From positions 106,996-170,995 of the forward strand of contig CAZKVR010000001.1 in NCBI GenBank assembly GCA_964556395.1: DNA of 64,000 nt, given 5' to 3'. How positions within the stretch are numbered: position 1 is the stretch's first letter; each line of letters opens with the position of its first letter. The position numbers and the translations under genes are program-made. This stretch comes from an uncultured Methanosarcinales archaeon (GTDB taxonomy: Archaea; Nanobdellota; Nanobdellia; Woesearchaeales; WJKR01). Under the pieces are notes generated by a model. It had not been told where the DNA came from. It saw only the letters and a list, made by a program, of their open reading frames with translations, and ran no database searches. Positions 3,770-54,954 of this stretch are shown here, in pieces.

Positions 3770-3872
3770 CGTCAGGGTTTATCCCTTCCTTTTCGGGAAG
3801 AGTTTGTTTACGACGTGGTCCCGGAGCTGTATGTTTCTCGCGCTTGCCAGGTCGTTGGGGGCTTCGAGTTCT

Positions 3873-4274
3873 TTAGCCGGTGTCTCCTTCCTCCGAGTTC
3901 TCTTCCCGTAGTGCAGAGACGTACGTCCAGTACTCTTCGAGCGTCAGTTCATGGAGCAGCGCTTTCTCGAAGTAGCAGGCGCAGGCGTTCAGGTCTCCGA
4001 AGAACGACCTGAACACGGGCTCTTCAAAGCAGGCCTCATAATAGGCTAACCCTAAGTTTGGGCCGTAGTACATGGTCTCGCCATGGTCTGACACGGCCTT
4101 GTGCGCGAACGTTATCTTCCATTGCTCGGAAGCGTTACAGAAGATGCTGAGTTGTTCTCGCAAATCATCCTTTGTCCGGCAGTCGTGCGCGAACAAGGTC
4201 GAGAAGCAGGTGAAGAGGTGCCGGTCCTTCATCTCAGACAGGCACTGCGCTTGTGTCAATGAGTGATGTTGCAT
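3873..4274 (-). CDS. Hypothetical protein
   Basis: ORF only. Confidence 0.45.
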   Translation of the reverse strand: MQHHSLTQAQCLSEMKDRHLFTCFSTLFAHDCRTKDDLREQLSIFCNASEQWKITFAHKAVSDHGETMYYGPNLGLAYYEACFEEPVFRSFFGDLNACACYFEKALLHELTLEEYWTYVSALREENSEEGDTG

Positions 4275-9641: not shown

Positions 9642-11336
9642 TTATAATGTGAAACTTAATGTAAAGAGCGCTTTGCTCAGGTAGAAGTCACTACCGCCAC
9701 CGCTGTCTAGAGTGCGAGTACTACCGTCCTGTAGCGTCCGGGTGGTGTGCCAACCCTTGTAATCGTCGCCTGGAACGTAGAATCCGAACTCTGCACCGAG
9801 GGCGATGTTCTCCCAAGGGAAGAATCCTATGCCGAAGCCTAGTGCAGGGAGCTTTCGCTTGGTGTCGAGGTCTTCGATGGCTATGGATTGCTTGGGAACG
9901 CCTTGGAGGTCTGTAATCTCCTCATAGGAGTTCTCCTTCCCTTTATAGGAGTCATAGCCTAACGAGCACCATGCCAGGAAGTCTTTCCGTTCCCGCTGCC
10001 TGAACATCACCAAAGCTTTCCAGCCGGTGAAGGTGGCGTCGCGTTCGATGTAGCCTTGGCCTCTCAGGTCTCCGACGGGCGGCCTCTTCTTCTCGATCTT
10101 TGAGTAGAAGCCGCCGTAGTTGAAGCCTGCTCCTAAGCCGAGATTCATCCACAAGCCTTTGTCAGGGTCGTCTGAAAGGAACGCGCCGGCCCAGAGGCCT
10201 CCTACGAAGGAGGGAGTGTTCTGATCCTGACCTGTCGCCGGCATGAAACCTGCGTGGGGGGTTATGACGAAGTGCTGTCCTCCCCATGGGTTCTTCTCGG
10301 GTACGGAGTCCTTACGGATAGTTTCTTTCTCCACCGTATCCTCAGCTTCCTCGACGAGGGTGATGTTGAAGGTCTGGTTGTAGTTGTTCACCACGCCAGG
10401 CTTCTCATCGCCTTCCACTATCACCGTGTCCTTCGCAGTCTCTTGTTCAGGCTTTTCCTTTTTCTTCGGACTTTGTTCCTTCGTGCGCTGAGCGGGCTTG
10501 GCTCCTCCTTCTTCCTTGACGAAGAAGTGGACTTTCCCCAACTTTCGACCATTGGGCAGAACGTAGTCTTCCTTGTTGCCGTATCGGAAGGCTGCGTAGA
10601 AGCCCTTTTGCAACTCTGTCGCATCGAGTTCGCCGTCCTCAAGGTTTTTCAAGACCTCTGAGCACTGCTTCCTCGCGGGTAGGCCGTAAGACTTGTATCG
10701 TTTCAGGCGGTTCAGGGCACGGAGTGGTTCCAACTGTTCAGTTTGGAGGGAGTACGAGAAGCTGGAGTCCAGCGCACGCCTCACCATCCGTATCCCTTTG
10801 ATACCATCGGTCACCATATGTATGGTGCCTAGTTCTAGCTTCTCTCCGGGGGAGAGCTTGCTGAATGCGTAGGTGGACACGGGCGAGATGAACAACGCGT
10901 CCTCCTCAGACTCCTTCAGGTCCTCTCCCAAGCGTTTTGCAGCATTTCCCTGGTCATAGTCTATCCTCAGGCCTTTCTTCTTCCGGTTAGGGATTCTGAG
11001 CTTCCTGAGGGCTTTGTTGTCTTCGAGCGCTTCTCGTTGTTTTGAGGTCAGCTCGATGACGGTCTTCCAGTCTCGTTCCTTGAATGGTACGAGCACGTCC
11101 GCGTAGCGGCGGGCGGGTTTGAGCGTATTATCCTCTAAGAGGATGATATCGACGTCCTTCCAGATGGATGCCGGAAGGTTCTCCTTGAAGTTGAACCCTG
11201 TGACATGTTCCGTCACCTCATCGAAGGACTTCTTGTTCGCCGTCGTGGAGTAGTCCCACGCGGGTACCCCGACCTGGCCGAGCAGCGTCGTATGCGCCAG
11301 CAGGACGAGGAAACATAGTGTGGTTATGGTTTTCAT
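9642..11336 (-). CDS. Secreted protein with N-terminal signal peptide and a beta-rich C-terminal domain
   Basis: The signal peptide reads MKTITTLCFLVLLAHTTLLGQ. The C-terminus has an alternating hydrophobic pattern ending FTLSFTL. Confidence 0.55.
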   Translation of the reverse strand: MKTITTLCFLVLLAHTTLLGQVGVPAWDYSTTANKKSFDEVTEHVTGFNFKENLPASIWKDVDIILLEDNTLKPARRYADVLVPFKERDWKTVIELTSKQREALEDNKALRKLRIPNRKKKGLRIDYDQGNAAKRLGEDLKESEEDALFISPVSTYAFSKLSPGEKLELGTIHMVTDGIKGIRMVRRALDSSFSYSLQTEQLEPLRALNRLKRYKSYGLPARKQCSEVLKNLEDGELDATELQKGFYAAFRYGNKEDYVLPNGRKLGKVHFFVKEEGGAKPAQRTKEQSPKKKEKPEQETAKDTVIVEGDEKPGVVNNYNQTFNITLVEEAEDTVEKETIRKDSVPEKNPWGGQHFVITPHAGFMPATGQDQNTPSFVGGLWAGAFLSDDPDKGLWMNLGLGAGFNYGGFYSKIEKKRPPVGDLRGQGYIERDATFTGWKALVMFRQRERKDFLAWCSLGYDSYKGKENSYEEITDLQGVPKQSIAIEDLDTKRKLPALGFGIGFFPWENIALGAEFGFYVPGDDYKGWHTTRTLQDGSTRTLDSGGGSDFYLSKALFTLSFTL

Positions 11337-11938
11337 GAGTTTGTGTTCTTTTTGTTCGTGATTTGGTCTTTTACATTCTCATCCGTGCGGATGGTTTGAG
11401 AGTTGAGTTCTTCGAGTTTTCGGAGTAGTCCATCAGAGGTGATGAATTTTTCACGAGCCCTCGATAAAACCCCGTTTCCTCCGACTCCGTTTTGGTGGTG
11501 CCTGACGTATTGCAGGGCTTGTTCTTCGACATTCTTTCGTAGCTCGTCGCGCACGTATCCGCTGTAGAGGAGGTTCAACATCTTGAGAACGTACTCTAGG
11601 CAGAGGTGGTCGACCAGTCCTCTGAGGAGGACGTGCTTCTCATAGTAGAGGGCCATGTATACCAGGTAAGGCGAGTAGTATGACCTGTCCTGTATGAGGG
11701 CGAGCGCTTCCTCGTCCTTAGGCAGCTGGTATTTTGGACAGTTCTCGAAGAAGACGAACCCTCTTTCAGGGTTCCTGTCGACTATCTTCTTGAATTCACG
11801 CATGTTTTCTCGGAAGAATTCGTACGTCAAGGGTTCCCCTTTGTTGATGTTTGAGAAGAGGTTGTAGCGGAGATTTGTAAGGTTTAACACCCCAAACATG
11901 AGGTTTGACACCAAGTTGTTCTTGAATCTTCTTTTCAT
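11333..11938 (-). CDS. Hypothetical protein
   Basis: ORF in a tightly packed array, with 4-nt overlaps to its neighbours. Confidence 0.5.
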   Translation of the reverse strand: MKRRFKNNLVSNLMFGVLNLTNLRYNLFSNINKGEPLTYEFFRENMREFKKIVDRNPERGFVFFENCPKYQLPKDEEALALIQDRSYYSPYLVYMALYYEKHVLLRGLVDHLCLEYVLKMLNLLYSGYVRDELRKNVEEQALQYVRHHQNGVGGNGVLSRAREKFITSDGLLRKLEELNSQTIRTDENVKDQITNKKNTNS

Positions 11939-16266: not shown

Positions 16267-16758
16267 TTACCGTCCTTTCTTGTTCGACATCTTTTTTTCA
16301 GGGCGAGTTTCCATGCACCTCATGACCCGATAGCGCATGGGCAAAGGCCGTTCAATCCCTTTGAGATTTACGGCCAACCATGACGTGATACTTTTGAACC
16401 CCTGATAATAGTGCATTACTGCCTGGAGGAGTTCTTCGCCATCGTTGGCGGTCACCTCCCGGTAATAGACTAGCTTGTCATAGATCCCGTCATCTTCCGT
16501 CGAGGCGTAGTGGAACTCCTCATAGTAGTCATTCCCAGTGAGTTTTTTCATTCTGATGATATCGAATGAACCGTCTTTGTCAGTATCAGTGTAGCGTTTG
16601 TATATCGTCTTTTCCACTAAGCCACGGTCTGATATGACGACTATAGAGTCCAAGCGGGTCTCAGTAAGCCTCAACAAGTATGTAGAGGTATCCTTTTCCT
16701 GTGCTGAAGTCCAGAGTGAGACCGCTGACAACACCATTATAATTATTGTTTTTCTCAT
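16267..16758 (-). CDS. Secreted protein (start at MRKTIIIMVLSAVSLWTSAQ)
   Basis: A signal peptide begins at an internal Met. The upstream ORF extension is Arg/Gly-rich and not protein-like. Confidence 0.5.
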   Translation of the reverse strand: MRKTIIIMVLSAVSLWTSAQEKDTSTYLLRLTETRLDSIVVISDRGLVEKTIYKRYTDTDKDGSFDIIRMKKLTGNDYYEEFHYASTEDDGIYDKLVYYREVTANDGEELLQAVMHYYQGFKSITSWLAVNLKGIERPLPMRYRVMRCMETRPEKKMSNKKGR

Positions 16759-25952: not shown

Positions 25953-26071
25953 AACTCTATTTTTAGGTGTTTAACAATATTTGATATTTAGTCTGGCGGT
26001 ACGCCCTTTTCTTGTCCGTCCAGGGCGAGGATAGGTGTCTTACACCGTACCGGCCGGTGGTTCGTCGTGGT

Positions 26072-26470
26072 TCAGTCGTTCGTCTTTCGGTATGGGCAGA
26101 TGAGTTCGTCGACGCCTTCGTATGCGTCTTCGTTGACGAGTTCCTCTAGGGATCGTTCGTCCGTGGGTGCTAGGGTCGTCGGGTGTTCGTCCACCATTGG
26201 TGGCCATTCGTGTGCTTGTGAAAACAATGGGTATTCTTCTATCATATCTGGTGATTTTGCTTGTTGCTGTTTTTCCGTCGTGAGAGCTGTTTTTTCGGTG
26301 GTTTTCCGTCGTATCTCTTGTTTTGATAGTGCTCTCGCTAAGAATTCTGGGTGTCCCAGAGCCGTTCTCGAGGGGTTTTTCACCGTTGGTCTCGATCTTT
26401 GTGGCTGTGGGTTTGCGACGCATGTCTTTGGCTTGTTGTCTTCGCGAATCGTGGTTCGTTCTGGCGACAA
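26072..26470 (-). CDS. Hypothetical acidic, disordered protein, possibly third gene of the ATPase operon
   Basis: The ORF lies downstream of gene 26604..28640 on the same strand. A TATATA sequence sits in the gap. Confidence 0.35.
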   Translation of the reverse strand: MSPERTTIREDNKPKTCVANPQPQRSRPTVKNPSRTALGHPEFLARALSKQEIRRKTTEKTALTTEKQQQAKSPDMIEEYPLFSQAHEWPPMVDEHPTTLAPTDERSLEELVNEDAYEGVDELICPYRKTND

Positions 26471-26603
26471 TGCCTGTGGTTGGTGTAGAGTCCCTCGTTA
26501 GGGATTCTTGCGTTTGTGCGGCGTCGCTGTGGTTGTGTGATGTGTTGTTGAGTGTGAGTTCGTCGTGAAAGACGAGGTGATATATAAGGATTGCGATTTG
26601 TAA

Positions 26604-28640
26604 CTACTTATTGGTGGCTAAAACTTTATCCACTTGTGCCGTGTGGTTCACCCGGGCGTACTTGGTCCAACCCTTCTCAGACCGTTCCTCCTCGACGAGG
26701 ATGGCGTCCTTCTCCTCCAGGGACTTCTTCACCTCGTTCCCCTTCCGGGGAGAGAAACCCGCTTCCTTATACAATTGCGATATCGGCATGCCGGGCTTGT
26801 CCTTCGCCGCCTTGAGGAATGCCAGCTCCTCCGCAGAAAGGCTGAGGGGCTTCTCTGCTCGAGCAGCAGCCTTTCTCGCCAGTCTCTTCGCCAGGCCTGA
26901 CCGTTTGATGTACTGGAACGTGTGCATGACATCCGCCCGTTTGAATCCTGCTTGCAGGAACCATTTCCGCAGTTCGTCGAAGCCTTCCCCGTTGAGCATG
27001 CGCTTCTTCGCCTGGTCGAGAATCTTCTGCTGCAAATGATTGCGGATACCATAGCCCGCCGGCCCGTCCTGCACCTTCTTGTGGTGCTCGTCCTGCGCCT
27101 GCTGCGCCGCTTTACGCGCCTCGTCGAATTGCAGGTGTTCTTTCAGCACGGTCCTGTTCGGCTCGGTCCCGCTCTTGATGAACGTGTACTCGAGCTTTGA
27201 GAGTTTCCGCGCCAGTTCTTCTTCTTTCACGCTTTTCTCGAAGACTTCTTTGCGTCTCTTCGTCTTGAGCAGCGCCTTCATCCGCTCTCGCAGATCGTCA
27301 TCGTCGATGGCCTGGCTTTTCAGCCTCATCAAGGGTGCCTTGATGACGAACGGCTCGTGGTGGCGTTCCACCAGTCGCACGAGCGCCTCACCCACTGGCA
27401 ACTTGGTGAAGAACTCTTTCTGGTCGCGTAGTTGCATGAGCCTGCTGATGGCTTCCACGTCCGCCGGGAGCATCTGTTGGAAGGCGATGTTCGTCGCCGA
27501 GTTACCTGACACGACGTCGGACAGCTTGCTGACGTGCTGGTCCAGCGTTATCAATGAGACGCCGTACTCTCGGATCTCTCGGAAGATGACGTCGGATATC
27601 GATTCGGAGATGAAGTTGGGGCGTTCCTTGAGGAAGATGTTGTGCGCCTCGTCCACCAATACCGCGTAGCGGAACTTCTCGGTCGGGTCGATGTTGCCGG
27701 CTTTCGCGTACTTGTAGATGTAGGAGAGCATGAACTGGGTGAAGAACTTCTTCTCAGTGTTGGACAGCGCCGCCAGTTCCATGACGGTCTCTTCGCGGAA
27801 GAGCTCTTCGATGCTGCTCTCCTCAGGCCCCTTGTAGCAGATGGCTTTCCCGAAGTTGCCGAACGTCAAGGCATAGGCGACTCGCAACGCTGATTCGAGC
27901 CATTCCGACTCGCGTGTCTTCCGAGTCTGGGCTTGCGCCTTCTCTTCCAGCCGGTCCCTGATCTGGTACCATGTCGGGTAGTTTTCCGAGCCCGCGTAGA
28001 CTCCGAAGTCCTTGTACGCCTTGTCCAGGGTTTCGACGACTATCTTGTGGACGCCGAACGATCCTGCGAACACTTCTGTGATGATGTCTGCCAGGAGGCT
28101 GACCCATTCCAGTGGTTCGACGCCTTTGGGTGGCTTGTTGATGTTGAGCTTGAAGTTGGCGACCTTGTCGTTGCCGACCGTGTACACCCTGAGCTTGTCG
28201 TTCAGCTTTACGAGTGGCCGGAAGCTTTTCTTCCAGTCGAAGACGAGGAATGGTTTCTTGTTGAAGATGAAGTTCCCTAGGACTTGGAATGCGAAGGTGG
28301 TCTTGCCGGATCCCGACATGCCAGTCACACAAACATGCCGCATCCAGTCCTGTTCTCGCAAACCAAAAGGATAGAGTTCTTTCTTACCGTACATCACCGT
28401 GCCGAGGGGGTACTTGCCTTGGATGACGTCTTTCTTCGGCGGTTCCAGGAGCAGTTGCTCGTTCAACAGACTGTCGGTCAGGTGTTTTTGGTACAGGGCG
28501 TTGATGGCTTGTTCCATCTCGGCTTTGGCGTCCCTGTCCGTGGTGAGGACGTATTTGAGGTAGAGTTGGTCGATTCTCTTGCCGAATATCGGCCTGAGCC
28601 GCCTGCAGATGTCCTCGACGCTGTTCGTCCGGCTGTGCAT
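26604..28640 (-). CDS. HerA/FtsK-superfamily (DUF87-like) P-loop ATPase with a C-terminal winged-helix domain
   Basis: Walker A is GMSGSGKT, Walker B is VLVDEAHNIF, and a sensor ITLDQ is present. A C-terminal HTH-like stretch reads MPISQLYKEAGFSPRKGNEVKKSLEEKDAILVEE. Confidence 0.75.
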   Translation of the reverse strand: MHSRTNSVEDICRRLRPIFGKRIDQLYLKYVLTTDRDAKAEMEQAINALYQKHLTDSLLNEQLLLEPPKKDVIQGKYPLGTVMYGKKELYPFGLREQDWMRHVCVTGMSGSGKTTFAFQVLGNFIFNKKPFLVFDWKKSFRPLVKLNDKLRVYTVGNDKVANFKLNINKPPKGVEPLEWVSLLADIITEVFAGSFGVHKIVVETLDKAYKDFGVYAGSENYPTWYQIRDRLEEKAQAQTRKTRESEWLESALRVAYALTFGNFGKAICYKGPEESSIEELFREETVMELAALSNTEKKFFTQFMLSYIYKYAKAGNIDPTEKFRYAVLVDEAHNIFLKERPNFISESISDVIFREIREYGVSLITLDQHVSKLSDVVSGNSATNIAFQQMLPADVEAISRLMQLRDQKEFFTKLPVGEALVRLVERHHEPFVIKAPLMRLKSQAIDDDDLRERMKALLKTKRRKEVFEKSVKEEELARKLSKLEYTFIKSGTEPNRTVLKEHLQFDEARKAAQQAQDEHHKKVQDGPAGYGIRNHLQQKILDQAKKRMLNGEGFDELRKWFLQAGFKRADVMHTFQYIKRSGLAKRLARKAAARAEKPLSLSAEELAFLKAAKDKPGMPISQLYKEAGFSPRKGNEVKKSLEEKDAILVEEERSEKGWTKYARVNHTAQVDKVLATNK

Positions 28641-28642
28641 TC

Positions 28643-29131
28643 TTATGCCTCCGGGCCGTTGAGGAGGCCGTCGATCATGCTGGCGTTGTTCTCTTGTTCT
28701 CGGAACTCGTGCATCCGGTCCCTGAGCTCTTTCTTGAGGTCTGCGATGTCTCGGAACGCGTTGATCTTCTCGTTGAGCTTGAATGATTCTATGTCGAGCA
28801 TCTTCTCCTTGAGCTCGGCCCGTTTGACCTCGTCGATCTTATCGCCTGCCGCTGCGAGGAAGTTGTTCATGTTCATCATGATCTGTTCGACATCCTTGAA
28901 CACGTCTTTCTGGAGGTCCTTGCGCTCGTCGATGAGGCTTTCGATGTCGTCGATGACCTCTTTCGTGTTCATGATCTTGGCGCCTTGGATGTCTTTCAGG
29001 ACGGAGTCCATGGACGTGTCAGTGTAGTTCTCCTTGACGTCGTCTACAGTGGGCATGAGCTTGTAGTCCTTAGAGGGTTCCTCGTTGCGCAGGAAGCCGT
29101 CCAGGAGTTCGTTGTCGAGCGTGTCAGCCAT
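28643..29131 (-). CDS. Acidic coiled-coil protein, co-transcribed with the ATPase (2-nt gap)
   Basis: Heptad-rich helical sequence. It sits immediately upstream of gene 26604..28640. Confidence 0.6.
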   Translation of the reverse strand: MADTLDNELLDGFLRNEEPSKDYKLMPTVDDVKENYTDTSMDSVLKDIQGAKIMNTKEVIDDIESLIDERKDLQKDVFKDVEQIMMNMNNFLAAAGDKIDEVKRAELKEKMLDIESFKLNEKINAFRDIADLKKELRDRMHEFREQENNASMIDGLLNGPEA

Positions 29132-29246
29132 TGTCGTGCCTCTTTTTTACTGTTTGGAGTCGGGAAAACCCTGAAAAACCGAGGGAAACGGTTTCTTTCT
29201 TACCGAGTGATAGAGAAGGTCCTATATAAAACTTTCCTTTTTTGTT

Positions 29247-30308
29247 TCACTTAGTAGTGACGAAATCTACGCAGAACCTGTAGATGTGCGGCGCTTGCTG
29301 GCCGCACCGCACCGTCTCGCGGATGTCGCAGCCGACGCCGGCGGCCTCGCACGCCTCGCGGATCCAAGAATATGCGCTATCGACCTTGTCCTCGTGGAGA
29401 AAGGCGTAGAAATGTATCGTCGCCGTGTCGTTCGCAGCCTTCAAAGCCACGTCGAGGAAGGTCTCTGCCCCTTTGGGCAGGGGCATGAGGATGCGGTCGA
29501 AGCCGCCTTTCTCCGAGACCAGCGTCGGCACGACCTCTCGGGCGTCCCCGACGTGCGTCGTGGCGTTGGAGAGCTTGTTCCGCTGGATGTTCTTGAGGGC
29601 GAGCTCGTGGCCACGCGGGTTGATCTCCACCCCGACGACCTCCGACGCATCGGTGTTCTTGCCCAGGACGCAAGTGTAGGGTCCGCAGCCCGAGAACATG
29701 ACGAGCACCCGCTCGTCCGGCTTCACGAGTCCCATGATGCGTTTCCGCTCGGTCGACAGCCTCACGGAGAAGTAGACATCCTCGACATCGACCTCGAGCG
29801 TGACGCCGTTCTCCTTGTGGAGCGTCACCCGCTTGTCCTCGCCCGCCAGCAACCGCATCTTCTGCGTCCGGTACGTACCCTCATGACTGGCGTCCTTGGC
29901 CAGCGCCGTGGACACGCGAGGGTTGGTCTCGAGCAGAGTCGCACCTATAACCTTGTCGTATTGTTTCAGGTCCTCATCGACTTCCAGGATGGCGATGTCG
30001 CCCACCTGGTCGTACGCCGTCTTGAGCCTTTCCAGGACGTCCGAGGGCAGCTTGCCTTGCAGGGCTTCGCGGAGGCTCTTGGGCCGTTCCTGCTGTCCCG
30101 GCAGGTCGCGCTCCTCGAACTCATAGGACGTGTCGAACCGTTCCTTGACCGGCAGGTAGAGGTGGCCGTCCTCCTTGACCGCCTTGTAGCCCGGCAGGAA
30201 GAGCCCTCGTTCTACGAGGTCTTTCCGGGCCTGTTCTGCGTCCTTCAAAGGCACCTTGAGCGCGAGCATGGGCGTCGTGAGCCAACGGGCGTTTTTAAGG
30301 TTATCCAT
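29247..30308 (-). CDS. trm5: tRNA (guanine37-N1)-methyltransferase Trm5
   Basis: VYFSVRLSTERKRI, MFSGCGPYT and LMPLPKGAETFLDVAL align with M. jannaschii Trm5. The start is placed at MDNLKN. Confidence 0.9.
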   Translation of the reverse strand: MDNLKNARWLTTPMLALKVPLKDAEQARKDLVERGLFLPGYKAVKEDGHLYLPVKERFDTSYEFEERDLPGQQERPKSLREALQGKLPSDVLERLKTAYDQVGDIAILEVDEDLKQYDKVIGATLLETNPRVSTALAKDASHEGTYRTQKMRLLAGEDKRVTLHKENGVTLEVDVEDVYFSVRLSTERKRIMGLVKPDERVLVMFSGCGPYTCVLGKNTDASEVVGVEINPRGHELALKNIQRNKLSNATTHVGDAREVVPTLVSEKGGFDRILMPLPKGAETFLDVALKAANDTATIHFYAFLHEDKVDSAYSWIREACEAAGVGCDIRETVRCGQQAPHIYRFCVDFVTTK

Positions 30309-30349
30309 AATTAGTTTCAATAAAGAAAAGAAAAGAGTCTGAAAAATCA

Positions 30350-30368
30350 GAGAACGCCTGCTGCTCGA
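30350..30368. repeat. 19-bp direct repeat copy 1 (GAGAACGCCTGCTGCTCGA)
   Basis: It is identical to copy 2 at 31960..31978. Both lie about 45 nt upstream of minus-strand ATGs. Confidence 0.8.
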
Positions 30369-30500
30369 ACACACGAAAGCATAACGGGCTCTCCGGAAAA
30401 ACTAGTGGACCCGTTGACACAAGGCATATATTCATCCGGACATATCTCCAAATAAGGAAAGGAACACAACAGTTATATACCTGCTATAACTACCTATAAG

Positions 30501-30737
30501 GTGATGAAGACTACAATCCAGCTCGACAAGCAGACCATCAGTCGCCTGCAGGAGCACAAGCTCTATCCGAGGGAGCCATACGACGCCATCGTCAACCGGC
30601 TCATTGACGAAGCAGAGGATGACGAAGAACTCACCCCTGATGAGATCAAGGATATCGAGGTTGCCCTGGAGCAGGTGAAGCAGGGTAAGACTATCAGAAT
30701 CGAGGACCTCGCGAAGGAGTTGGGTGTGAAGCTCTGA
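30501..30737 (+). CDS. RHH-type antitoxin (type II TA)
   Basis: An N-terminal beta-strand TTIQLDKQT is present. The stop overlaps the start of the RelE gene. Confidence 0.7.
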   Translation: MMKTTIQLDKQTISRLQEHKLYPREPYDAIVNRLIDEAEDDEELTPDEIKDIEVALEQVKQGKTIRIEDLAKELGVKL

Positions 30738-30988
30738 TGTACGCTCTCGAATTCTCGGATGAGGCCGCGAAGACTATCAGGAAACTACCCAGGAACGAGC
30801 GCGACCGCATCCTCAAGAAGATACAGAGCATCCGCGACTACCCCTTCGCGCATCTCAAGAAGCTGGAAGGCAATACGTTCTGGCGCCTCCATATCGGCAA
30901 GTACCGCGCCATCGTGGATGTCATCGTGTCCGGCAGGCGCATCATCGTCCTCAGGATCGGGAAGCGTGGCGATGTCTACGACCGCTGA
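30737..30988 (+). CDS. relE: RelE/ParE-family toxin
   Basis: The protein is about 83 aa and contains ...FWRLHIGKYRAIVDVI...RIGKRGDVY. Confidence 0.8.
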   Translation: MYALEFSDEAAKTIRKLPRNERDRILKKIQSIRDYPFAHLKKLEGNTFWRLHIGKYRAIVDVIVSGRRIIVLRIGKRGDVYDR

Positions 30989-31017
30989 GAACCCAACCTA
31001 CAAGAGCAGCAGCTCTT

Positions 31018-31917
31018 CTACACGACGACGAGCACGACACCCACGAGCATGACGCAGCACGCCATGAGCTTCAATCCCAGCCGGTGCTCGTGGAACAACC
31101 GACCCCCTATCAAGGAGGTGAAGAACGTCGACAAGCGCCTGACAGGGATTATGAGGCTGACCAGCGCTCCGGGAACACCCATGGCGAAGAGCAGAGCCAC
31201 GTCGGACATGAAGCTGGAGAATGTGCTGCTGAATATCTGCATCCCATCCTGCCTGATATCCCTGAGAATCTCGTTGAAGCCATGCTTGGCAGTCTCGAAC
31301 GCCACATAGTTGAAGCCCATGAAGAGCCTCACGAGGACGACGATAGTGAACACGTCGATACCCCAGTTCACCACAGCCTTCTGCATAGTGACTGTAAAGC
31401 TGAAGATGAGCATGGCGAATATCATGTACAGGGCGTACCGCGACCTCGCCAGGATTCTGAACGGCGACCAGATGCCATTGTACCGGCCAGCCGTAGCCAT
31501 CTGGAGAAGGTATGTCCCCATGACGAGGAGGAACACGCCGATGATAGCGAGGGCGTCGGGCGACTCTCCCAGCAGGACGAACGCTATGACGAGGAGGAAT
31601 AACGGACTGATATTCATCAACGGCATGCAACTGGACAGTTCGGAGTGACGCAGGCTCCTCAAATAGTAGAGGTTGCCGGCCGCGAGGATGATACTGATCA
31701 CGTACAACGCTACGAAGACGCGCCAGTCGTATGCTAGGTTGATGAACGGCAGGACGAATATGAGCAACAAGAGGTATATCCCTTGGGACGCGCCGTATTC
31801 GAGGGCGTGCTCGTGCTGGAGCACTTTCTTCCCGACGATGCTTGCCATGGCGTGGAAGACGGCCGATGCGAATGCGTAGGCTACCCAGAGCATGAGCCCT
31901 TCACCGCAACCATTCAT
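31018..31917 (-). CDS. EamA/DMT-family transporter
   Basis: Ten TM helices are predicted. An EamA-like motif SPLFLLVIAFVLLGESP is present. Confidence 0.7.
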   Translation of the reverse strand: MNGCGEGLMLWVAYAFASAVFHAMASIVGKKVLQHEHALEYGASQGIYLLLLIFVLPFINLAYDWRVFVALYVISIILAAGNLYYLRSLRHSELSSCMPLMNISPLFLLVIAFVLLGESPDALAIIGVFLLVMGTYLLQMATAGRYNGIWSPFRILARSRYALYMIFAMLIFSFTVTMQKAVVNWGIDVFTIVVLVRLFMGFNYVAFETAKHGFNEILRDIRQDGMQIFSSTFSSFMSDVALLFAMGVPGALVSLIIPVRRLSTFFTSLIGGRLFHEHRLGLKLMACCVMLVGVVLVVV

Positions 31918-31959
31918 TTATAAACGTTACTGTCACTCCAGATAATGACAGGATGCCGC

Positions 31960-31978
31960 GAGAACGCCTGCTGCTCGA
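31960..31978. repeat. 19-bp direct repeat copy 2. Includes the palindrome CTGCTCGAGCAG
   Basis: See copy 1. Confidence 0.8.
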
Positions 31979-31991
31979 GCAGAAGCCCTTT

Positions 31992-33023
31992 TCAGAAATA
32001 ATCGCCGAGTCCTTTCTGGGCTCGTTCCTGGCCGTGCTTGGCGAGCTGCTCCACCGTTTTCTGGACGCGTTCGGGCGAGAAGTCGTGGCGTTCCACCAGG
32101 ATCTCGTGCAGCGCGTCGCCATCCACCCCTTTCCATTGCAGGTCGTACTCGTCCGTGACTGGCATCTGCTTGAACAGGGCGAAGGCTTCCTGCCATGAGG
32201 ATTGGAACTCTTCTCGCCAGTTGACGTCTGCGAACACCTTGCCGACGTCTTCCTGGGCTTTGACGAGCTTGAGGCCTTTCTTCGGCCCTATCCCTTTGAT
32301 GCCGCCGACGTTGAAGTCCGTGCCTATCAGCAATCCTAGGGCTATGAGCTGGTCCCTTGTGATCTCTAGCTTCTGCAGCACGTCCTGGAGTGTTATGAGT
32401 TCGGGCTTGATGCCTTCGGTGGCGTAGGCGCCTTTCTTCTTGCGCCGGGCGGTGATGCTGAGGTTCTTCACCATCCGCGGGGTTCCGAACAGGAGGCAGT
32501 CGTAGTCTTGGCTGATGAGCGCCCACGCGTCGCCCTTGTAGACCATGTGGGCTGCTTGTGCCTCTCCTTCAGAGGGTGCTTGGATGGTCGGGATGCCTAA
32601 TGCTGTGAGGAGCTCTTTCGCCTCGTCCACCATGTCTCTCGTCAGCCTCGAGGTGCGGCCGGCGTATTTCTTCATGCCTTCTACATCCTCGGCTTCCTTG
32701 GCGGCGTCGTATGATGCTTGGGCGTCCTGCTTGAGCTTCTGCCGCCGCTCCTGCTCTTTCCGTTTGAGCTCTGGGGCTTTGCCGTCGAAGACGAAGACGA
32801 GCCTGAGGCCTTCTCGCATGAGTTTGGTGGTCCTTGAGAAGAGGCCTACGAGGTGGCTGGTGACGTTGCCGTGCTTGTCCGAGAGCGGCGCGCCGTCCGG
32901 GCCTCGGATGGTGGTGAGGAACTGGTAGAGGACGTTGTACGCGTCGACGACGAAGGTCTTGCCTGACAGGTCTGCCAGGCTGACCGGTTCTCCTTTGACG
33001 AGTTCTGAGAGCGAGACGCCCAT
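31992..33023 (-). CDS. fen1: Flap endonuclease 1
   Basis: The N-terminus is MGVSLSELV...VDAYNVLYQFLTTIR. A PCNA-interacting C-terminus is present. Confidence 0.95.
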   Translation of the reverse strand: MGVSLSELVKGEPVSLADLSGKTFVVDAYNVLYQFLTTIRGPDGAPLSDKHGNVTSHLVGLFSRTTKLMREGLRLVFVFDGKAPELKRKEQERRQKLKQDAQASYDAAKEAEDVEGMKKYAGRTSRLTRDMVDEAKELLTALGIPTIQAPSEGEAQAAHMVYKGDAWALISQDYDCLLFGTPRMVKNLSITARRKKKGAYATEGIKPELITLQDVLQKLEITRDQLIALGLLIGTDFNVGGIKGIGPKKGLKLVKAQEDVGKVFADVNWREEFQSSWQEAFALFKQMPVTDEYDLQWKGVDGDALHEILVERHDFSPERVQKTVEQLAKHGQERAQKGLGDYF

Positions 33024-33149
33024 GGCGGTGGTGAGAATATGGTTCTTCTTAAGGGTTTGGATGGTGGTTCTCTAGAAAACCAGTTGAATATTAAAAAAAC
33101 CAATTGGTTTCCAAAAAGTTTATATAGTTTCGAACGAAACCAAAAGAAT

Positions 33150-33722
33150 ATGGAAGGAGTCAATAAGGAAAGCTATGAAGAAGAGGACGCTTATACGAAG
33201 GTGTTGTACTGGTTCTTCGCCCACCCCACCATTGAAGTCAGCCTCAACGACCTCGTCGAGGCGGTGAACATCTCCAAGACCTCGGCGAACAAGGCCGTGC
33301 ACAGGCTCGTGGATGAAGGATTCCTTCGCCTCAAGCAGCTGGGACGGCTGTGGCGCATCACTTGTAACCAAGAGCACGAGTACAACATCACCAGGAAAGT
33401 CCCGTTCAACCTCCAGACAGTCTACCAGGCAGGCATCCTCGAAGAGATTCGCAAGCGCATCCCGAACCCCCGCGCAGTCGTGCTCTTCGGCAGTTATCGC
33501 AAGGGCGACGACACGGAGGAGAGCGACATCGACATCGCAGTGGAAGTGATGGATGACAAGGATTACAGGATAGTGGAATTAGGGGTCCTCACGACCTTAG
33601 GTTTCCGCGAGCACGTGCCCGTCAACCTGCACGTATTCTCACGCAACCATGTGGACCTCAACCTGTTCGCCAACATCGCCAACGGCATCGTCCTTGAAGG
33701 GTTCCTGGAGGTGCGACCATGA
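33150..33722 (+). CDS. MNT-type nucleotidyltransferase with N-terminal wHTH (antitoxin of a HEPN/MNT pair)
   Basis: The GS...DxD motif reads VVLFGSYRKGDDTEESDIDIAV. A TATA box TTTATATAG lies 24 nt upstream of the ATG. Confidence 0.75.
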   Translation: MEGVNKESYEEEDAYTKVLYWFFAHPTIEVSLNDLVEAVNISKTSANKAVHRLVDEGFLRLKQLGRLWRITCNQEHEYNITRKVPFNLQTVYQAGILEEIRKRIPNPRAVVLFGSYRKGDDTEESDIDIAVEVMDDKDYRIVELGVLTTLGFREHVPVNLHVFSRNHVDLNLFANIANGIVLEGFLEVRP

Positions 33723-34105
33723 GGAGGAAACGTCCCGATATCAAGAACGCCGACAGCCTGCTGGAGGCCAGCAAGAACACCCTGAGGTTCACCATGAAGC
33801 TGGAGGTGTCGGAGGAGTCGGCCGACACTATCATCAGGAACGTGCACGAGGCGTTCCGGATGCTCGGCGAGGCATTGCTTCTCAAGCAAGGAGGGGTCGC
33901 CGTCGATCACACCCAGCCGATCGAGGCCCTCATCCGCACGAACGTCCAAACAGAGAGGCCCTTGTCGGTGTTGACGACCATCAGGAAGACGAGGCATTCC
34001 ATCAATTACTACGGCTACCGGCCGACGGTGGCGGAAGCGCGGGATGCGGTGTCTGTGGCCGAGGCTTGTTTCGACAAGCTGGCAGAACATGTCAAGAGCC
34101 TATAG
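33719..34105 (+). CDS. HEPN-domain protein (putative toxin partner)
   Basis: The protein is all-alpha and about 128 aa. It contains an RKTRHSINY Rx(n)H-like motif and overlaps MNT by 4 nt. Confidence 0.55.
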   Translation: MRRKRPDIKNADSLLEASKNTLRFTMKLEVSEESADTIIRNVHEAFRMLGEALLLKQGGVAVDHTQPIEALIRTNVQTERPLSVLTTIRKTRHSINYYGYRPTVAEARDAVSVAEACFDKLAEHVKSL

Positions 34106-35148
34106 CTGTACCAACAATAATCCTTTGAATTCGTGGTTGAGCTTCTCCTTCGCTTTCTTCGTCACGTCGCCTGTCGTGAGGTAGATGACCGGTAGCTTCT
34201 TCATCTGTCCTTGGACGTACGCGTTGGAGAGGTCGCCGTCGTTGCTCTTCTTCTTGTTCTTCGCCTTGCAGAAATAGGTGACGCGACCGACGGCTGTCGG
34301 TACTGAGATCTCGAATTCGATGTCCGAGTTCTTGCGCTGGACCTCTTTGGCGATGACCTGGATTCGCTTCTCGGCGAAGTATTCCAGGACTTGTTTGAGG
34401 AAGTCGTCGCCGGTGTCGTCCTGTTGCTTGAGGAGTGTCTTTGCGGGCACCGCTTCGGGCGTTCCGGAGGGTTCTTCCGACCCACTCTCTTCTTGCATCT
34501 CAGGCTCTGCTGCTTTTGTATGCTCGTGTTTCACGGCTTCTGACTGTTCTTGCGTTGCTGGTTTCGGGGCTTGTCTCGTGGATTTTTGTGGCGCTTGCTC
34601 AGGAGATTGCCGGGCGTCTTGCGAGGGTTCTGTCGGTGACGCTTCCTTGGACTGTTCTTCCTGGATTGGTGCTGGTTGTTCTGCTGGCTTGGTCTGCTTG
34701 GGCGTGATGCCTAATGCCTGTTTGATGAGCGGCTCCGCCTCTTTCGTCTGGAGCTGGTACCATTTCCAGAACAGGACGGTGCCGTCTTTCGTCTTGACTT
34801 CCAGTGGTACGGCGAAGTCTTTGACCTGTCGGAGGCTGACCCTGGCGAGGGGTTCTTGCTCGTCGTCTTTGAGTATCTGTTTCTGCTTGAGGAGTTCTGC
34901 CGTCCGCCTGTCCTTCTCGCCGAGGTATTGTATGAGTTTGGTCAGCTTGTCGGCGTGTTCCGGGATGTAGTAGAAAGGCCCTCCGCGTTTGGTGTTGCTC
35001 ACCTTGACCTTCCCTGCGCCTTTGAGCTCTGACAGGACGGCGCCGATGGTGAACGAGTCGCCTTCGCCGAGGGCTTTCCTGATGTGGAGGGGTTGGCACG
35101 GGCCTTTCTGTCGGAGGACTTGCAGGACGGCGTCTCTGTTGAGCATGT
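34100..35148 (-). CDS. wHTH + PD-(D/E)xK nuclease-like protein with a low-complexity linker
   Basis: The start is placed at MLNRDAVLQVLRQKG. The C-terminus has a SDIEFEISV...CKAK restriction-endonuclease-like motif. Confidence 0.5.
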
Positions 35149-35263: not shown

Positions 35264-35851
35264 ATGGCAGGAGACAGGCTCATCCACGAGGAATTCATAC
35301 AGGCCAAGACAGACCCCCTCATGAGAGAGGCAGTGATGGGCAAGGTGTGGACGAAAGCATACCACATCGCGTCGAGATACACCCGCTCATCAGCAGAGGC
35401 GGAGGACATCGCCCAGGAAGCCTCGTTGAATGTCCACAAGAACTTCCACGTCTACGGCAGCAAGAGGCAGAACAACCCATACGCATGGGTGCACACCATC
35501 ACCACGAACATCTGCGTAAATCACTACCGGAGGCGGCCGAAAACCCCCATCATAAGCCTCGACGAGGAGGAAAGGGCAGAGGGCCATACCAGGATGAAGA
35601 GGGATGTCCCGGACGAGCGCAACAACATCGAGGACTACCTCAACCTCAAGGAGTGCGAGGAGGTGTTGGCCAGCCTGCCTGAAAAGAAAGGGAAGGCCTA
35701 CCTGTTGTCCTATCTCGAAGGATACAAGTACGACGAGATCGCAGCGATCACCAAGGAGCGGATGGGCACCGTGAAAAGCAGCATCCATAGGATGAGAGAA
35801 CGGGCGAAAGAGCTGTTCCAGGAACGCGCTCCCGTCTACATCAGGAAGTGA
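35264..35851 (+). CDS. ECF-type RNA polymerase sigma-70 factor (regions 2 and 4)
   Basis: Region 2 reads AEDIAQEASLNVHKNF...YAWVHTITTNICVNHYRRRP. Region 4 reads LPEKKGKAYLLSYLEGYKYDEIAAITKERMGTVKSSIHRMRERAKEL. Confidence 0.8.
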   Translation: MAGDRLIHEEFIQAKTDPLMREAVMGKVWTKAYHIASRYTRSSAEAEDIAQEASLNVHKNFHVYGSKRQNNPYAWVHTITTNICVNHYRRRPKTPIISLDEEERAEGHTRMKRDVPDERNNIEDYLNLKECEEVLASLPEKKGKAYLLSYLEGYKYDEIAAITKERMGTVKSSIHRMRERAKELFQERAPVYIRK

Positions 35852-41450: not shown

Positions 41451-42023
41451 ATGCTCGGCAACAAGCGGAAAGAAGAGCTCGAAAAGCTCAAGCAGGACGT
41501 CACGGAGAAGGCAGAAGAAACAAAAAAGCTACAAGAGGACGCCAAGGCCCAACGCTCGAGTATACAAGAGCAGCAGGCCTTCCTGGAGAAACTCAGCAAG
41601 AAGCAGGATGACCTCATCAACGCGTTCTCAGGGGAGCTCGACACCCTGCGCCGGACGAACGAGCAGGCCAAGGCAGAGGTCCATAACCTGAAGACCACCC
41701 GGGTCGAGCTCAAGGACGACGTGGCGGAACGGTTCCAGCAGCAATTGTCAAAGTCGTTGAAGGCCATGGAGGGCAAGCTGGAAGCGGACACCGGCAGGAT
41801 AGATGCCTTGTCGGAGTCATTCCAGGCCATCACCAAGGAGCTCAAGGACGCGAGGGCGCAGATCGGCAAGTTCAAGGACCTCGCCGAGACCATCAAGGAG
41901 TCGGACTACAGGCTGAAAGAGCACGCCAAGGCCTTGGAGCAGGCGGACCAGGAGAAGCTGCGGCTGATGAAGCGCGTGGACGAGCTGGAATCCATGATGG
42001 CGAAGATGAAAAGACGTCACTGA
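41451..42023 (+). CDS. Coiled-coil protein
   Basis: The protein is helical along its whole length. A TATA box CTATATAG lies about 50 nt upstream. Confidence 0.55.
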   Translation: MLGNKRKEELEKLKQDVTEKAEETKKLQEDAKAQRSSIQEQQAFLEKLSKKQDDLINAFSGELDTLRRTNEQAKAEVHNLKTTRVELKDDVAERFQQQLSKSLKAMEGKLEADTGRIDALSESFQAITKELKDARAQIGKFKDLAETIKESDYRLKEHAKALEQADQEKLRLMKRVDELESMMAKMKRRH

Positions 42024-42075: not shown

Positions 42076-42615
42076 ATGAAAGTCCTGTTGGAACAAGCCA
42101 CGCCGGACCTCGCCGCCAAGGCGCAAAAGGAATACGACGCGCTCTTCTCACAACAACCGGACAAGTACCGCACACACCTCAACAACTACGACCTCGACAA
42201 CCCCGAGAAGGCGGAGCTCGAACCGGACGAGGACGAGGACCTCTACCTCATCAAGGACCAGCAGGACAACCTCCTCGGATACCTGCAAGCGTGTCAAGAA
42301 CAGCCAGGAACCCCCGCCCCCGACGCGCCAGTGCTGAGAGACTACACCAACCAAGGCGACAGCCTCACCATCAACAAGCTCGAGATCTTCAAGAAATACC
42401 AAGGGATAGGACTCGGCAGCGAAGTCATGGAACAACTGCAAGGACGAGGCTACGAGCTCATAGACCTCACGGCAAGGGAGAGCGCCGAGAGGTTCTACCT
42501 CAAGCACGGCTTCAAAGACACCGGCCTGAGGGATGAAGGGAAGAAGGTGCTGGCCTGGCACAACCCGGAGTACGAATCCCGAGAAGCATCCCTGCTTGAG
42601 CAGCAAGCCTTCTAA
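42076..42615 (+). CDS. GNAT-family acetyltransferase
   Basis: The protein carries Q/RxxGxG/A-like QGIGLGSEVMEQL and RFYLKHGF. Confidence 0.55.
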   Translation: MKVLLEQATPDLAAKAQKEYDALFSQQPDKYRTHLNNYDLDNPEKAELEPDEDEDLYLIKDQQDNLLGYLQACQEQPGTPAPDAPVLRDYTNQGDSLTINKLEIFKKYQGIGLGSEVMEQLQGRGYELIDLTARESAERFYLKHGFKDTGLRDEGKKVLAWHNPEYESREASLLEQQAF

Positions 42616-42887
42616 CGGTATTTGAGTATGAGAACGAGGGATAGCACCGAACCCCCGACGCCGAACCCGAACCCGATGATGATCGGCCACGCGCCAAGCA
42701 CCAAGCCATACGCCAACCACACGCTCGTCCCGAGCGAGAAGATTATGTACGTCCACAGGCTGACGTCATGGGATGACTTGCGCTGCCAGAGCCGCCACGC
42801 CTGCAACCAGTGGCCGAAGCTCATGAGCACGCCGAAGACAGACGCCACCACCTCCAGAACGGCCAGGAACATCCCCCACCAGAACAA
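42612..42887 (-). CDS. SemiSWEET / PQ-loop sugar transporter (3-TM)
   Basis: It aligns to bacterial SemiSWEET: ...WLQAWRLWQRKSSHDVSLWTYIIFSLGTSVWLAYGLVLGAWPIII. Confidence 0.65.
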   Translation of the reverse strand: MFWWGMFLAVLEVVASVFGVLMSFGHWLQAWRLWQRKSSHDVSLWTYIIFSLGTSVWLAYGLVLGAWPIIIGFGFGVGGSVLSLVLILKYR

Positions 42888-53717: not shown

Positions 53718-54344
53718 ATGATGATTAAAAATAATCCTGAATACAAAATGATAGGAGCGCTCCTGAAGCAGCCGCTAGAAAGCAGGACTCTCCGCCAAGC
53801 AGCCCTGGAAGCAGGCATCACGTACGCGACAGCCCATAAGAACCTCACACGACTCCTCGAGACAGGAATGGTACGAGAGCGACGGAAAGGCAAGGCACGC
53901 CTCATCAGCGTCGACTTCGAGCACGCACCTACGGACGCGTTGTGCACGGCAGCAATACACGTCAGGGAAGCCTTCAAGAGGCACCACCCGAACATCGCCG
54001 TCCTCGCCAACGACCTCGAACGAGCCCTGGCCGGCCGGTTCTACACCCTAATACTCTTCGGATCGAGAGCCCTCGACAATGAGGAGCAGGACTCCGACGT
54101 GGACCTCATCATCATCACGCCGTCCCGGAAACTGTCCGAGGACTACGACGCAACGATTAACAAGACATTGGAGCTCTCGCCTTTGGAGGCGGACGTCAAG
54201 GTAGTGACGACGAACGACTTTGAGGAGATGCTCAATCAGAAGTACAGCGTCGGCAGGGAAGCGTTCGAGAACGGCATCGTACTCTTCGGGGTTGAGCAGT
54301 ATTACGCCACGGTGAAAAGACATGCTCAGACCAAAGGATTGTGA
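53718..54344 (+). CDS. MNT-type nucleotidyltransferase with N-terminal wHTH
   Basis: The motif LILFGSRALDNEEQDSDVDLIIIT is present. Confidence 0.7.
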   Translation: MMIKNNPEYKMIGALLKQPLESRTLRQAALEAGITYATAHKNLTRLLETGMVRERRKGKARLISVDFEHAPTDALCTAAIHVREAFKRHHPNIAVLANDLERALAGRFYTLILFGSRALDNEEQDSDVDLIIITPSRKLSEDYDATINKTLELSPLEADVKVVTTNDFEEMLNQKYSVGREAFENGIVLFGVEQYYATVKRHAQTKGL

Positions 54345-54954
54345 GGACGCGAAAGGACTTTTCAAGGACTGGGACCTCAAAAGACGATGGGCAACACCTA
54401 CACAAGCGTTCATCGAACACACGAGGAGGAAGGCGAAGGACTCGTTGGAACTAGCGAACTACCTCATGGAGAAGGTGGAAGGCACGAGCGAACTCTCCCA
54501 AAACAGTACAGCTACCATCTGGGTGGTGACCGTCGCGTACTACTCGATGTTCTTCCAAGCGGAATACCTGCTCGGCCTGGACGGAAGGAAGTTCCCGAGA
54601 GGGACAAAGGACACGCATAAGACGGTGTACCTCGCATTCATCTACTATTACCTTATCAAAGGGTCTGACCAGGAGCGGACGACGAGCACAAAAACGACCA
54701 CCAGTAGGATGTCACGCGCACTGGCGCTCTTCAAGGAACTGCAGGATGAGACCATGGAATTGCAGCGGGTGGAGAGAAAGGCGGAAGACCTGGACCGACA
54801 ACGACGGAAGAGGCAGGATTTCACCTACGAGATGAACCGGACGGCAAAGATATCAGAGGCGAAGAACAGCTTGATGAAGGCCAAGGAATTCCGGACCCTC
54901 ATAGAAGAGTGCCTGTTGGCACGCAAGACAGGCATCACTTCCGCACGAACCTGA
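54322..54954 (+). CDS. HEPN-like protein
   Basis: The protein is all-alpha with an RGTKDTH (Rx5H) motif. It overlaps the MNT gene. Confidence 0.5.
   Translation: MLRPKDCEDAKGLFKDWDLKRRWATPTQAFIEHTRRKAKDSLELANYLMEKVEGTSELSQNSTATIWVVTVAYYSMFFQAEYLLGLDGRKFPRGTKDTHKTVYLAFIYYYLIKGSDQERTTSTKTTTSRMSRALALFKELQDETMELQRVERKAEDLDRQRRKRQDFTYEMNRTAKISEAKNSLMKAKEFRTLIEECLLARKTGITSART

Follow-up and report, generated by a model that had tools for sequence, protein, structure and literature searches.

The locus between the genes trm5 and fen1 raises the question of what a perfect 19-bp direct repeat marks in an archaeal genome. The repeat, GAGAACGCCTGCTGCTCGA, occurs exactly at 30350-30368 and again at 31960-31978, both on the + strand, of the window, by which we mean the whole 64-kb stretch of contig CAZKVR010000001.1 that was analysed. 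The first-pass annotation had described this pair, and it holds at 19/19. Two explanations had been offered there: an att-like duplication left by insertion of a mobile cassette with a toxin-antitoxin (TA) pair and a transporter, or a palindromic operator common to trm5 and the transporter gene. Our analysis points to another answer. The fen1-trm5 interval is best described as a cassette hotspot of which a DUF7557-ParE pair is the current cargo, and this descriptive part is well supported. The 19-mers belong to a family of palindromic elements that probably are the sites of cassette exchange; for the explanation as a whole we estimate a probability of about 0.55.

The repeat pair and its surroundings

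The repeats bracket a ribbon-helix-helix (DUF7557)-RelE/ParE pair and an EamA transporter of the drug/metabolite transporter (DMT) type, as had been annotated; the Pfam matches agree with that. Open reading frame is abbreviated as ORF in the following list of genes.

29247-30269, minus strand: trm5, tRNA m1G37 methyltransferase (Pfam PF02475, PF25133, PF18093; ORF to 30308)
30504-30737, plus strand: DUF7557 antitoxin-like gene (PF24434, E=8e-11; ORF 30501/30504)
30737-30988, plus strand: ParE/RelE-family toxin (PF05016, E=2e-8), with its stop codon inside element E2
31018-31893, minus strand: EamA/DMT transporter (Pfam PF00892; ORF to 31917)
31992-33023, minus strand: fen1, flap endonuclease (Pfam XPG_N and XPG_I, and homologues)

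Three palindromic elements, named E1 to E3, and one variable segment lie between these genes.

30350-30410, plus strand: E1, upstream of trm5, a degenerate palindrome of ~61 nt with the ends GAGAACGCC and GGGCTCTCC; its first 19 nt are copy 1 of the repeat
30411-30984, plus strand: variable cargo, a TA mini-cassette, without similarity to the DNA in the corresponding slot of the relative L082 and absent from L003 and L083
30985-31019, minus strand: E2, between the convergent DMT and ParE genes, 35 nt, TAGAAGAGCTGCTGCTCTTGTAGGTTGGGTTCTCA (nhmmer E=1.3e-6)
31960-31994, plus strand: E3, at the fen1 stop; its first 19 nt are copy 2 (profile search E=2.5e-7)

Along the + strand the order is trm5 (leftward), E1, the DUF7557-ParE pair (rightward), E2, DMT (leftward), E3 and fen1 (leftward). 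The repeat pair is far beyond chance: with up to three mismatches GAGAACGCCTGCTGCTCGA is matched three times in the window, in comparison to a mean of 0.04 in 100 dinucleotide shuffles, none of which reached three, and by our own estimate ~0.008 perfect 19-bp pairs are expected anywhere in 64 kb. The identity of E1 and E3 is confined to the 19-mer, with sharp borders and flanks that do not align, and an extension to 22 nt gives 21/22. Copy 2 extends to the perfect palindrome CTGCTCGAGCAG (31971-31982), as had been noticed before, and this palindrome is part of a 34-nt imperfect one (31960-31993). The third GAGAACGCCTGCTGCTCGA-like match lies on the minus strand in a HerA-like gene and has two mismatches; if the flanks of copy 2 are included, 24/26 positions agree (26854-26879). 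A third related copy (30985-31019, minus strand), which is E2, is found at the stop codons of DMT and ParE, and weaker related copies at 34506-34533, 41554-41583 and 42580-42615. E2, the match in the HerA-like gene and the weaker copies had all escaped the first-pass annotation.

Conserved and variable parts of the locus

The window proteins were compared by tblastn to 80 fen1-centred loci, and closer relatives were added via homologues of Fen1; all comparison DNA thus consists of fen1-centred loci. The relatives of Fen1 are Woesearchaeota (DPANN archaea). The order fen1-DMT-trm5, in one orientation, could be identified in the closest pair of GTDB genomes, L002 and L003, as well as in at least ten Woesearchaeota of greater distance. 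At least 14 genomes of Woesearchaeota have DMT in this place and orientation; the gene lies between fen1 and trm5 in L002, L003, L005, L008, L010-14, L016, L019, L024, L056 and L082-84, while in other, more distant Woesearchaeota (L006, L007, L009, L015 and others) fen1 directly adjoins trm5. The DMT orthologues are 57-62% and the Trm5 orthologues 62-69% identical. Since the DMT proteins share no more identity than that, an insertion of DMT, if there was any, predates the divergence of these genomes. The DUF7557-ParE pair was found by tblastn in the window only.

The comparison to the closest relative, L082, divides the locus to the base. In blastn both sequences are collinear with 82% identity from the fen1 start to 30985 and again from 30410 into trm5. 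The DNA between these blocks is unrelated, comprising 574 bp with DUF7557-ParE in the window and 1081 bp with HicA and a PIN/VapB-like pair in L082. DMT therefore belongs to the core, and only 30411-30984 is mobile; the conserved flanks contain both 19-mers. L082 keeps both repeat copies next to its different cargo, the first at 22/22 (22-mer GAGAACGCCTGCTGCTCGAACA) and the second at 16/19. DMT is ancestral at this locus, fen1-DMT-trm5 is an old and widespread arrangement, and only the TA pair is cargo.

These comparisons bear on the idea that the 19-bp repeats are attL and attR of a 1.6-kb mobile TA and DMT cassette inserted between trm5 and fen1. The identity is sharply bounded at 19 bp and surrounded by unrelated flanks, which resembles att cores, and the distant genomes with fen1 next to trm5 could be taken as empty sites. 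However, DMT is found at the same place in all close and many distant relatives, E3 orthologues follow fen1 in genomes with other cargo or none, the segment that varies between the window and L082 is 30411-30984 only, and the fen1-trm5 genomes without DMT do not contain any copy of the motif. A perfect 19-mer stemming from a DMT insertion would also not have survived, because such an insertion would be ancient and the L082 copies are already at 16/19. We therefore consider this origin very unlikely. The empty site proposed at first, with fen1 abutting trm5 and a single repeat, is accordingly not seen in any close relative, all of which keep DMT. Relatives with the same gene order, both repeats and many further copies of the 19-mer had been named beforehand as a sign of a generic operator; L082 has both copies, its cargo differs and its copy 2 is the diverged one.

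Cargo and target duplications in relatives

The junction between DMT and trm5 carries different cargo in the closest relatives, which are listed with their Fen1 percentages.

L082 (closest relative), Fen1 83%: HicA and a PIN/VapB-like pair
L083, Fen1 73%: none
L084, Fen1 73%: a second EamA gene
L003, Fen1 71%: none
L002, Fen1 70%: a Fic/DOC gene

The junctions of these cargoes are informative. ParE of the window and HicA of L082 are unrelated toxins that have the TGA within the right arm of E2 as their stop codon. Therefore cargo was exchanged with base-level precision at the element borders. In L082 the PIN/VapB-like (VapBC-like) pair lies between E1-type repeats of ~60 nt with about 80% identity, so that this element type is duplicated around it, and the stop codon of PIN is fused to the element. 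E1 of the window is homologous to L082 3655-3716, and the blastn homology stops at 30410. At the end of the ENA contig of L082, positions 3869-3900 are the Illumina adapter AGATCGGAAGAGCACACGTCTGAACTCCAGTCA; the last ~30 nt are therefore not genomic.

Two relatives show direct duplications of the target. In L088 a 599-bp TA pair of the YafQ/ParE family directly follows fen1 and is flanked by a perfect 48-bp direct repeat (48/48; 11020-11067 and 11667-11714). The repeat consists of the last 13 nt of fen1 with its stop codon, a degenerate element and the toxin stop on the other strand. The GC content of this cassette is 0.31 compared to 0.48 for fen1, and L084 contains the 48-bp sequence as a single copy. 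L089, a second assembly of the L088 organism, breaks inside the first copy of the repeat. The other case is the 26-nt sequence CTCTAGAAGGTCTGCTGCTTTTGTAT, which L003 contains once and to which the DNA on either side of the 1125-bp Fic insert in L002 can be aligned; the two genomes represent the empty and the occupied site. In both L088 and L002 the duplication takes in the end of the upstream gene including its stop codon (fen1 and DMT, respectively), and the gene is intact after the insertion. The att idea thus fails for the 19-bp pair of the window but survives in a changed form: toxin cassettes without integrase, with duplicated targets and empty sites, do occur at this locus in relatives.

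A family of palindromic elements

The ideal form of the element is the symmetric palindrome AGAAnGnCTGCTGC-N4-GCAGCAGnCnTTCT, i.e. AGAAnGnCTGCTGC-N4-GCAG-N6-TTCT, with a length of ~35-60 nt. It is often extended by CTCTAG... at one end and ...TTCTCAG at the opposite end, and usually one of the halves is better preserved. In E1 and E3, GAGAACGCCTGCTGCTCGA covers the left half and one half of the centre. In E2 the DMT stop (TAG) forms the left end and the ParE stop (TGA) lies in the right arm, while the right arm of E3 contains the fen1 stop (31992-31994). Orthologues of E2 are present at the DMT stop in L003, L002, L082, L083 and L084; orthologues of E3 follow fen1 in L082, L084/L085, L003 and L093 and, in degenerate form, in L088. 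Further stop codons with an element are those of Fic, a second DMT, Hjc, a histidine phosphatase and a GNAT protein. Outside the fen1-trm5 interval the following relatives of the element were found in the window.

26835-26877, minus strand: element-like 42-nt compound palindrome in the linker of the HerA-like gene, coding for RKAAARAEKPLSLS; 24/26 to copy 2 and its flanks
34506-34533, plus strand: weaker family-like stretch in a low-complexity charged linker of a 421-aa gene, recurring in orthologues
41554-41583, minus strand: family-like stretch in a coiled-coil protein gene, coding for IQEQQAF (E=7e-6)
42580-42615, minus strand: family member at the stop codon of a GNAT acetyltransferase gene (42076-42615, plus strand)

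The palindrome of the HerA linker reads AGAAAGGCTG-CTGCTCGAGCAG-AGAAGCCCCT-CAGCCTTTCT and is located between the ATPase domain and a C-terminal winged-helix-like part. At the same site L084 (16437-16469) and L002 (16607-16630) contain an element as well, and the encoded peptides differ (RKAAARAEKP, LQKQQPVSEP, RKASAKAGAP). An in-frame inversion of this linker element between the window and L084 was considered and rejected; it is only apparent, because the element is symmetric and its 'orientation' merely reflects which half is better preserved. The linker stretch of the 421-aa gene, CTGCTGCTTTTGYA..., is located on the antisense strand both in the window and in L084 (9575-9600), L086 (7282-7308) and L088 (3677-3706). 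The GNAT protein ends with ...LLEQQAF*, and the 3' end of its gene overlaps a convergent gene for a small SWEET/PQ-loop-like membrane protein (42612-42887, minus strand).

The element family is real, non-random and specific to a narrow clade of Woesearchaeota. The core AGAANGNYTGCTGCT is found six times in the window with at most one mismatch, in comparison to 0.19 expected occurrences, and exact core matches are restricted to the closest relatives among 81 fen1-centred loci. With a profile built from 20 copies, 30 non-redundant copies were identified in 175 kb of DNA of the close clade. In 17 of these the stop codon of a real gene lies in an arm (fen1, DMT, DMT2, Fic, Hjc, histidine phosphatase, GNAT, ParE and HicA); nine are intra-coding, mostly in low-complexity linkers, and four are situated in promoter-side spacers. 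All three intergenic copies of the window fall within this 1.7-kb locus. A scan of JGI metagenomes for AGAANGNCTGCTGCTTTTGYA yielded 48 single matches on unrelated contigs, without tblastx similarity, stop-codon fusion or right arm, and a broader pattern in IMG/VR yielded 23 matches on unrelated contigs, again without similarity to the window, stop-codon fusion or right arm. These matches are due to chance, and the family is therefore seen neither beyond the small clade nor in viral contigs. No earlier description was found in the searchable literature on palindromic or intergenic repeats of Woesearchaeota or on TA hotspots in DPANN archaea.

Given a family of this kind, the perfect agreement of E1 and E3 can be considered anew. 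E1 is identical in the window and L082. At the variable positions of the fen1-end element the orthologues in L082, L084, L003 and L093 differ from each other, and there E3 of the window equals E1. The 19/19 identity is best read as constraint on the conserved letters together with probable gene conversion, or else chance; chance agreement at three or four free positions amounts to ~1-5% by our own estimate. The identity does not go back to an insertion of DMT and TA.

DNA site or RNA hairpin

In an alignment of 22 copies, 67% of the cells are paired compared to 71% in column shuffles, and compensatory changes are not in excess. In folding energy the copies are only modestly better than shuffled sequences, with z-scores mostly between 0 and -2.5. 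A scan for hairpins followed by a T-run, as in terminators, called neither E1, E2 and E3 nor any other copy, and no Rfam family matched 26000-34500 at E<=1. Because the letters are conserved, the variable positions drift independently and covariation is lacking, a DNA site recognised by a protein is preferred to a selected RNA stem, and the element appears to fit the site of a symmetric protein better than an RNA hairpin. Searches for tyrosine-recombinase sites have used inverted arms of 11-15 bp and a spacer of 4-10 bp (PMC2958812). The layout of the element, about 14-4-14, is within this core-type (dif/lox-like) architecture, which is a resemblance only.

Peptide readings of the element were also tried, with L[LQ][KE]QQxF on one strand and CCFC in frame after TAG on the other. 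They were rejected, because stop codons close the frames one codon away (L003) and the reading follows from the conserved DNA.

The position of so many copies at gene ends suggests the main rival explanation, in which the elements are gene-end punctuation only, that is a lineage-specific signal of the termination, roadblock or 3'-end type, which a compact genome would use at its gene ends in the form of DNA or RNA. The flanking duplications would then be incidental products of homologous recombination between dispersed copies, and the two 19-mers simply two such signals. Stop codons adjoin 17 of the 30 copies, a single copy often being common to two convergent genes, the fen1-end copy is kept in at least five genomes while the remaining spacer diverges, and the common TTTTGTA variant, which contains a run of four T, shows better folding on the sense strand. 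The absent covariation, the weak folding z-scores and the negative hairpin scan speak against such a signal, however, and so do the CGAGCAG variants of the window, which have no T-run. Furthermore, E1, its orthologue in L082 and a copy in L084 (1467) are situated in divergent promoter regions without an upstream gene end, most of the ~85 genes of the window have no element while the intergenic copies cluster at one locus, and upstream coding sequence is part of what is duplicated in L088 and L002. On balance we regard a role in punctuation alone as doubtful.

Gene starts and the operator hypothesis

Both repeat copies had been placed about 45 nt upstream of a minus-strand ATG. The distance is 42-43 nt if the ORF starts at 30308 and 31917 are used, but the starts that are conserved in relatives lie further downstream. 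The likely start of Trm5 is 30269 (MLALKVPL), which is kept in L082, L002 and L003, with a TATA-like box at 30292-30298. For DMT it is 31893 (MLWVAY), kept in L003, L002 and L082 together with the TATA box at 31917-31924. In both genes the box is thus 22-23 nt upstream of the start. The TA pair has its own TATA-like box (30473-30479) at a distance of 24 nt, and the antitoxin stop overlaps the toxin start (TGATG, 30735-30739). As small overlapping genes with a known toxin family and their own promoter-like box, DUF7557 and ParE agree with what characterizes type II TA systems; the same type of pair is present nearby in L087.

A dimeric factor could bind the palindrome ~70-110 nt upstream of DMT, trm5 and other starts and co-regulate these genes, as a shared operator or upstream activating site. 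The conservation of the palindrome in its primary sequence without covariation would agree with that, as would the copy centres, which are roughly 70-108 nt upstream of the start of the next gene in several genomes, and the 22/22 identity of E1 in L082. Very short spacers force these distances in any case. What makes an operator unlikely is that the copy upstream of DMT is missing in L002, that many copies have no downstream promoter, being located between convergent genes (E2, L086 10046-10077) or inside coding sequence, and that an exact in-frame fusion of stop codons of unrelated genes to the element arms is not expected of it. From the operator proposed for trm5 and DMT the conserved palindrome therefore remains, whereas the restriction to these two genes does not, as the same family is found at the stops of unrelated genes and in coding linkers.

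Proposed cassette exchange at the elements

We return to the reading preferred here, that the boundary elements are sites of cassette exchange. The elements would be DNA sites that are recognised by a protein and allow circular or incoming cassettes to recombine with the chromosome, which would make the fen1-trm5 interval a small array of cassettes. A recombinase with its gene elsewhere would act in trans, for example a tyrosine recombinase of the XerA type; an event on short homology is an alternative to a recombinase. For the mechanism alone, recombination at the elements by a trans-acting factor, the odds are about even. An insertion of cargo into the centre of a single palindrome was considered for the present-day variation and rejected, because the window and L082 cease to be homologous at the outer edges of E2 and E1 and not at a loop.

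Several observations weigh against cassette exchange. No recombinase, integrase or transposase was found by Pfam in the 64-kb window, including ~75 further ORFs, which confirms the earlier remark that no integrase is left there. In a search for near-identical copies the closest homologue of the ParE toxin elsewhere is 59% identical, so that recent mobility of the window cassette is not demonstrated. The elements on either side of the TA pair of the window, E1 and E2, are best regarded as inverted, with only the arm GAGAAC.CC in common in direct orientation; these flanks are not a clean direct duplication as in L088 and L002. Elements are also found where non-mobile housekeeping genes end, and within the coding linkers of HerA and of the 421-aa protein; a pure recombination site would not require such positions. 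Finally, as the sampled DNA is fen1-centred, the copy counts speak for these loci only.

Comparison with known systems

Integrons and CALINs (clusters of attC sites without integrase) with TA cassettes were reported in Nanoarchaeota, which belong to DPANN (Ghaly et al. 2022, PMC9668308). The present locus resembles them in its small, often TA-encoding cassettes, the imperfect palindromic sites between them, the arrangement as an array and the frequent lack of an integrase nearby. The elements are, however, not integron attC sites. A regular-expression search of the cassette regions of the window, L088, L082, L002 and L084 found no R'' (RYYYAAC) and R' (GTTRRRY) boxes 40-130 nt apart. An attC site comprises about 57-141 nt with a conserved folded structure, whereas the elements here are 35-60 nt long and show no covariation. 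In contrast to integrons, there is no IntI in the window, the sites are embedded in housekeeping stop codons, and the insertions duplicate 26-48 bp of the target.

The pdif/dif modules of Acinetobacter (PMC6449649, PMC13141974) are similar in being short, free of a recombinase, often TA-encoding and bordered by sites with inverted arms. They are shuffled in trans by a host recombinase and are known from bacterial plasmids with 11-6-11 XerC/XerD sites (PMC6449649, PMC13141974). The elements described here differ by their layout of about 14-4-14 and their location on an archaeal chromosome, and the likeness to XerA/dif is one of architecture only.

With regard to shape and position, the elements recall repetitive extragenic palindromic (REP) sequences. 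REP sequences and the bacterial interspersed mosaic elements (BIME) built from them are imperfect palindromes of ~35 nt just after stop codons, often between convergent genes. An imperfect palindrome of 20-40 nt near gene 3' ends is indeed what most copies here represent, yet nine of the 30 are intra-coding. Other differences to REP are the low copy density in the sampled DNA, the conservation of sequence rather than pairing and the association with cassette junctions; no RAYT, IS200-type or Y1 transposase was seen in the window. By their in-frame occurrence inside coding linkers the elements are closer to Rickettsia palindromic elements than to REP.

Integrative elements may target the 3' end of a conserved gene, with an attP that carries a replacement copy (archaeal review PMC8371274). 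The duplicates in L088 and L002 are similar to that, as they hold the last codons and the stop of the upstream gene. They differ in that the insert is only 0.6-1.1 kb long and encodes no integrase.

Other features of the window

The window contains no tRNA gene, and no marked compositional break is seen at the cassette. The window stretch is also present in the Logan assembly of SRR11308339. Fen1 carries a PCNA-binding motif (PIP box), QKGLGDYF, at its C-terminus. On the other side of fen1 a pair of MNT (nucleotidyltransferase) and HEPN genes (33150-34105) lies between the 421-aa gene and fen1, and likewise in L088. The orthologue of the 421-aa gene directly adjoins fen1 in L003, L084 and L093, and the MNT/HEPN site is therefore a second insertion slot. 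A second nucleotidyltransferase gene, followed by an ORF without Pfam match, is located at about 53718-54954.

A protein with Sigma-70 region 2 and region 4 (PF04542, PF08281) is encoded at 35264-35851 on the plus strand of this archaeal genome and is also called in the Logan contig L001. From 1900 to 26500 there are ~35 consecutive minus-strand ORFs without Pfam match at E<=1e-4, adjoining the HerA-like DUF87 ATPase. Many of them have lipoprotein-like N-termini with recurring DNA (e.g. ATGATTGTTTTTCTCAT at 16739, 20441, 23334 and 40416); between 24 and 26 kb the GC content is lower (0.38-0.48). Possible identities of this block are an integrated element, a provirus and a surface-protein island.

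Implications

For the annotation of this genome the analysis corrects the likely starts of trm5 and DMT, reduces the mobile part from 1.6 kb to 574 bp and assigns the transporter to the core instead of the cargo. One slot in otherwise collinear genomes holds DUF7557-ParE, HicA and a VapBC-like pair, Fic, a second transporter or nothing, and the junctions fall to the base at a conserved palindrome, some of them with fresh target duplications. Tentatively, this could represent a cassette system of DPANN archaea distinct in kind from integrons, in which palindromes of ~35 nt in the stop codons of chromosomal genes are used to insert, excise and swap mini-cassettes with a promoter and a toxin gene or TA pair, 26-48 bp of the target are duplicated and a host recombinase acts in trans; the array between fen1 and trm5 would then still be evolving. 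A recombination site would stand for a mechanism of cassette exchange distinct from that of integrons, and an element that acts in termination or as a boundary signal would amount to a gene-end motif new for archaea. DPANN archaea have tiny genomes with few recognised mobile elements, and the turnover of their defence and addiction genes is largely obscure, for which this locus offers a concrete case.

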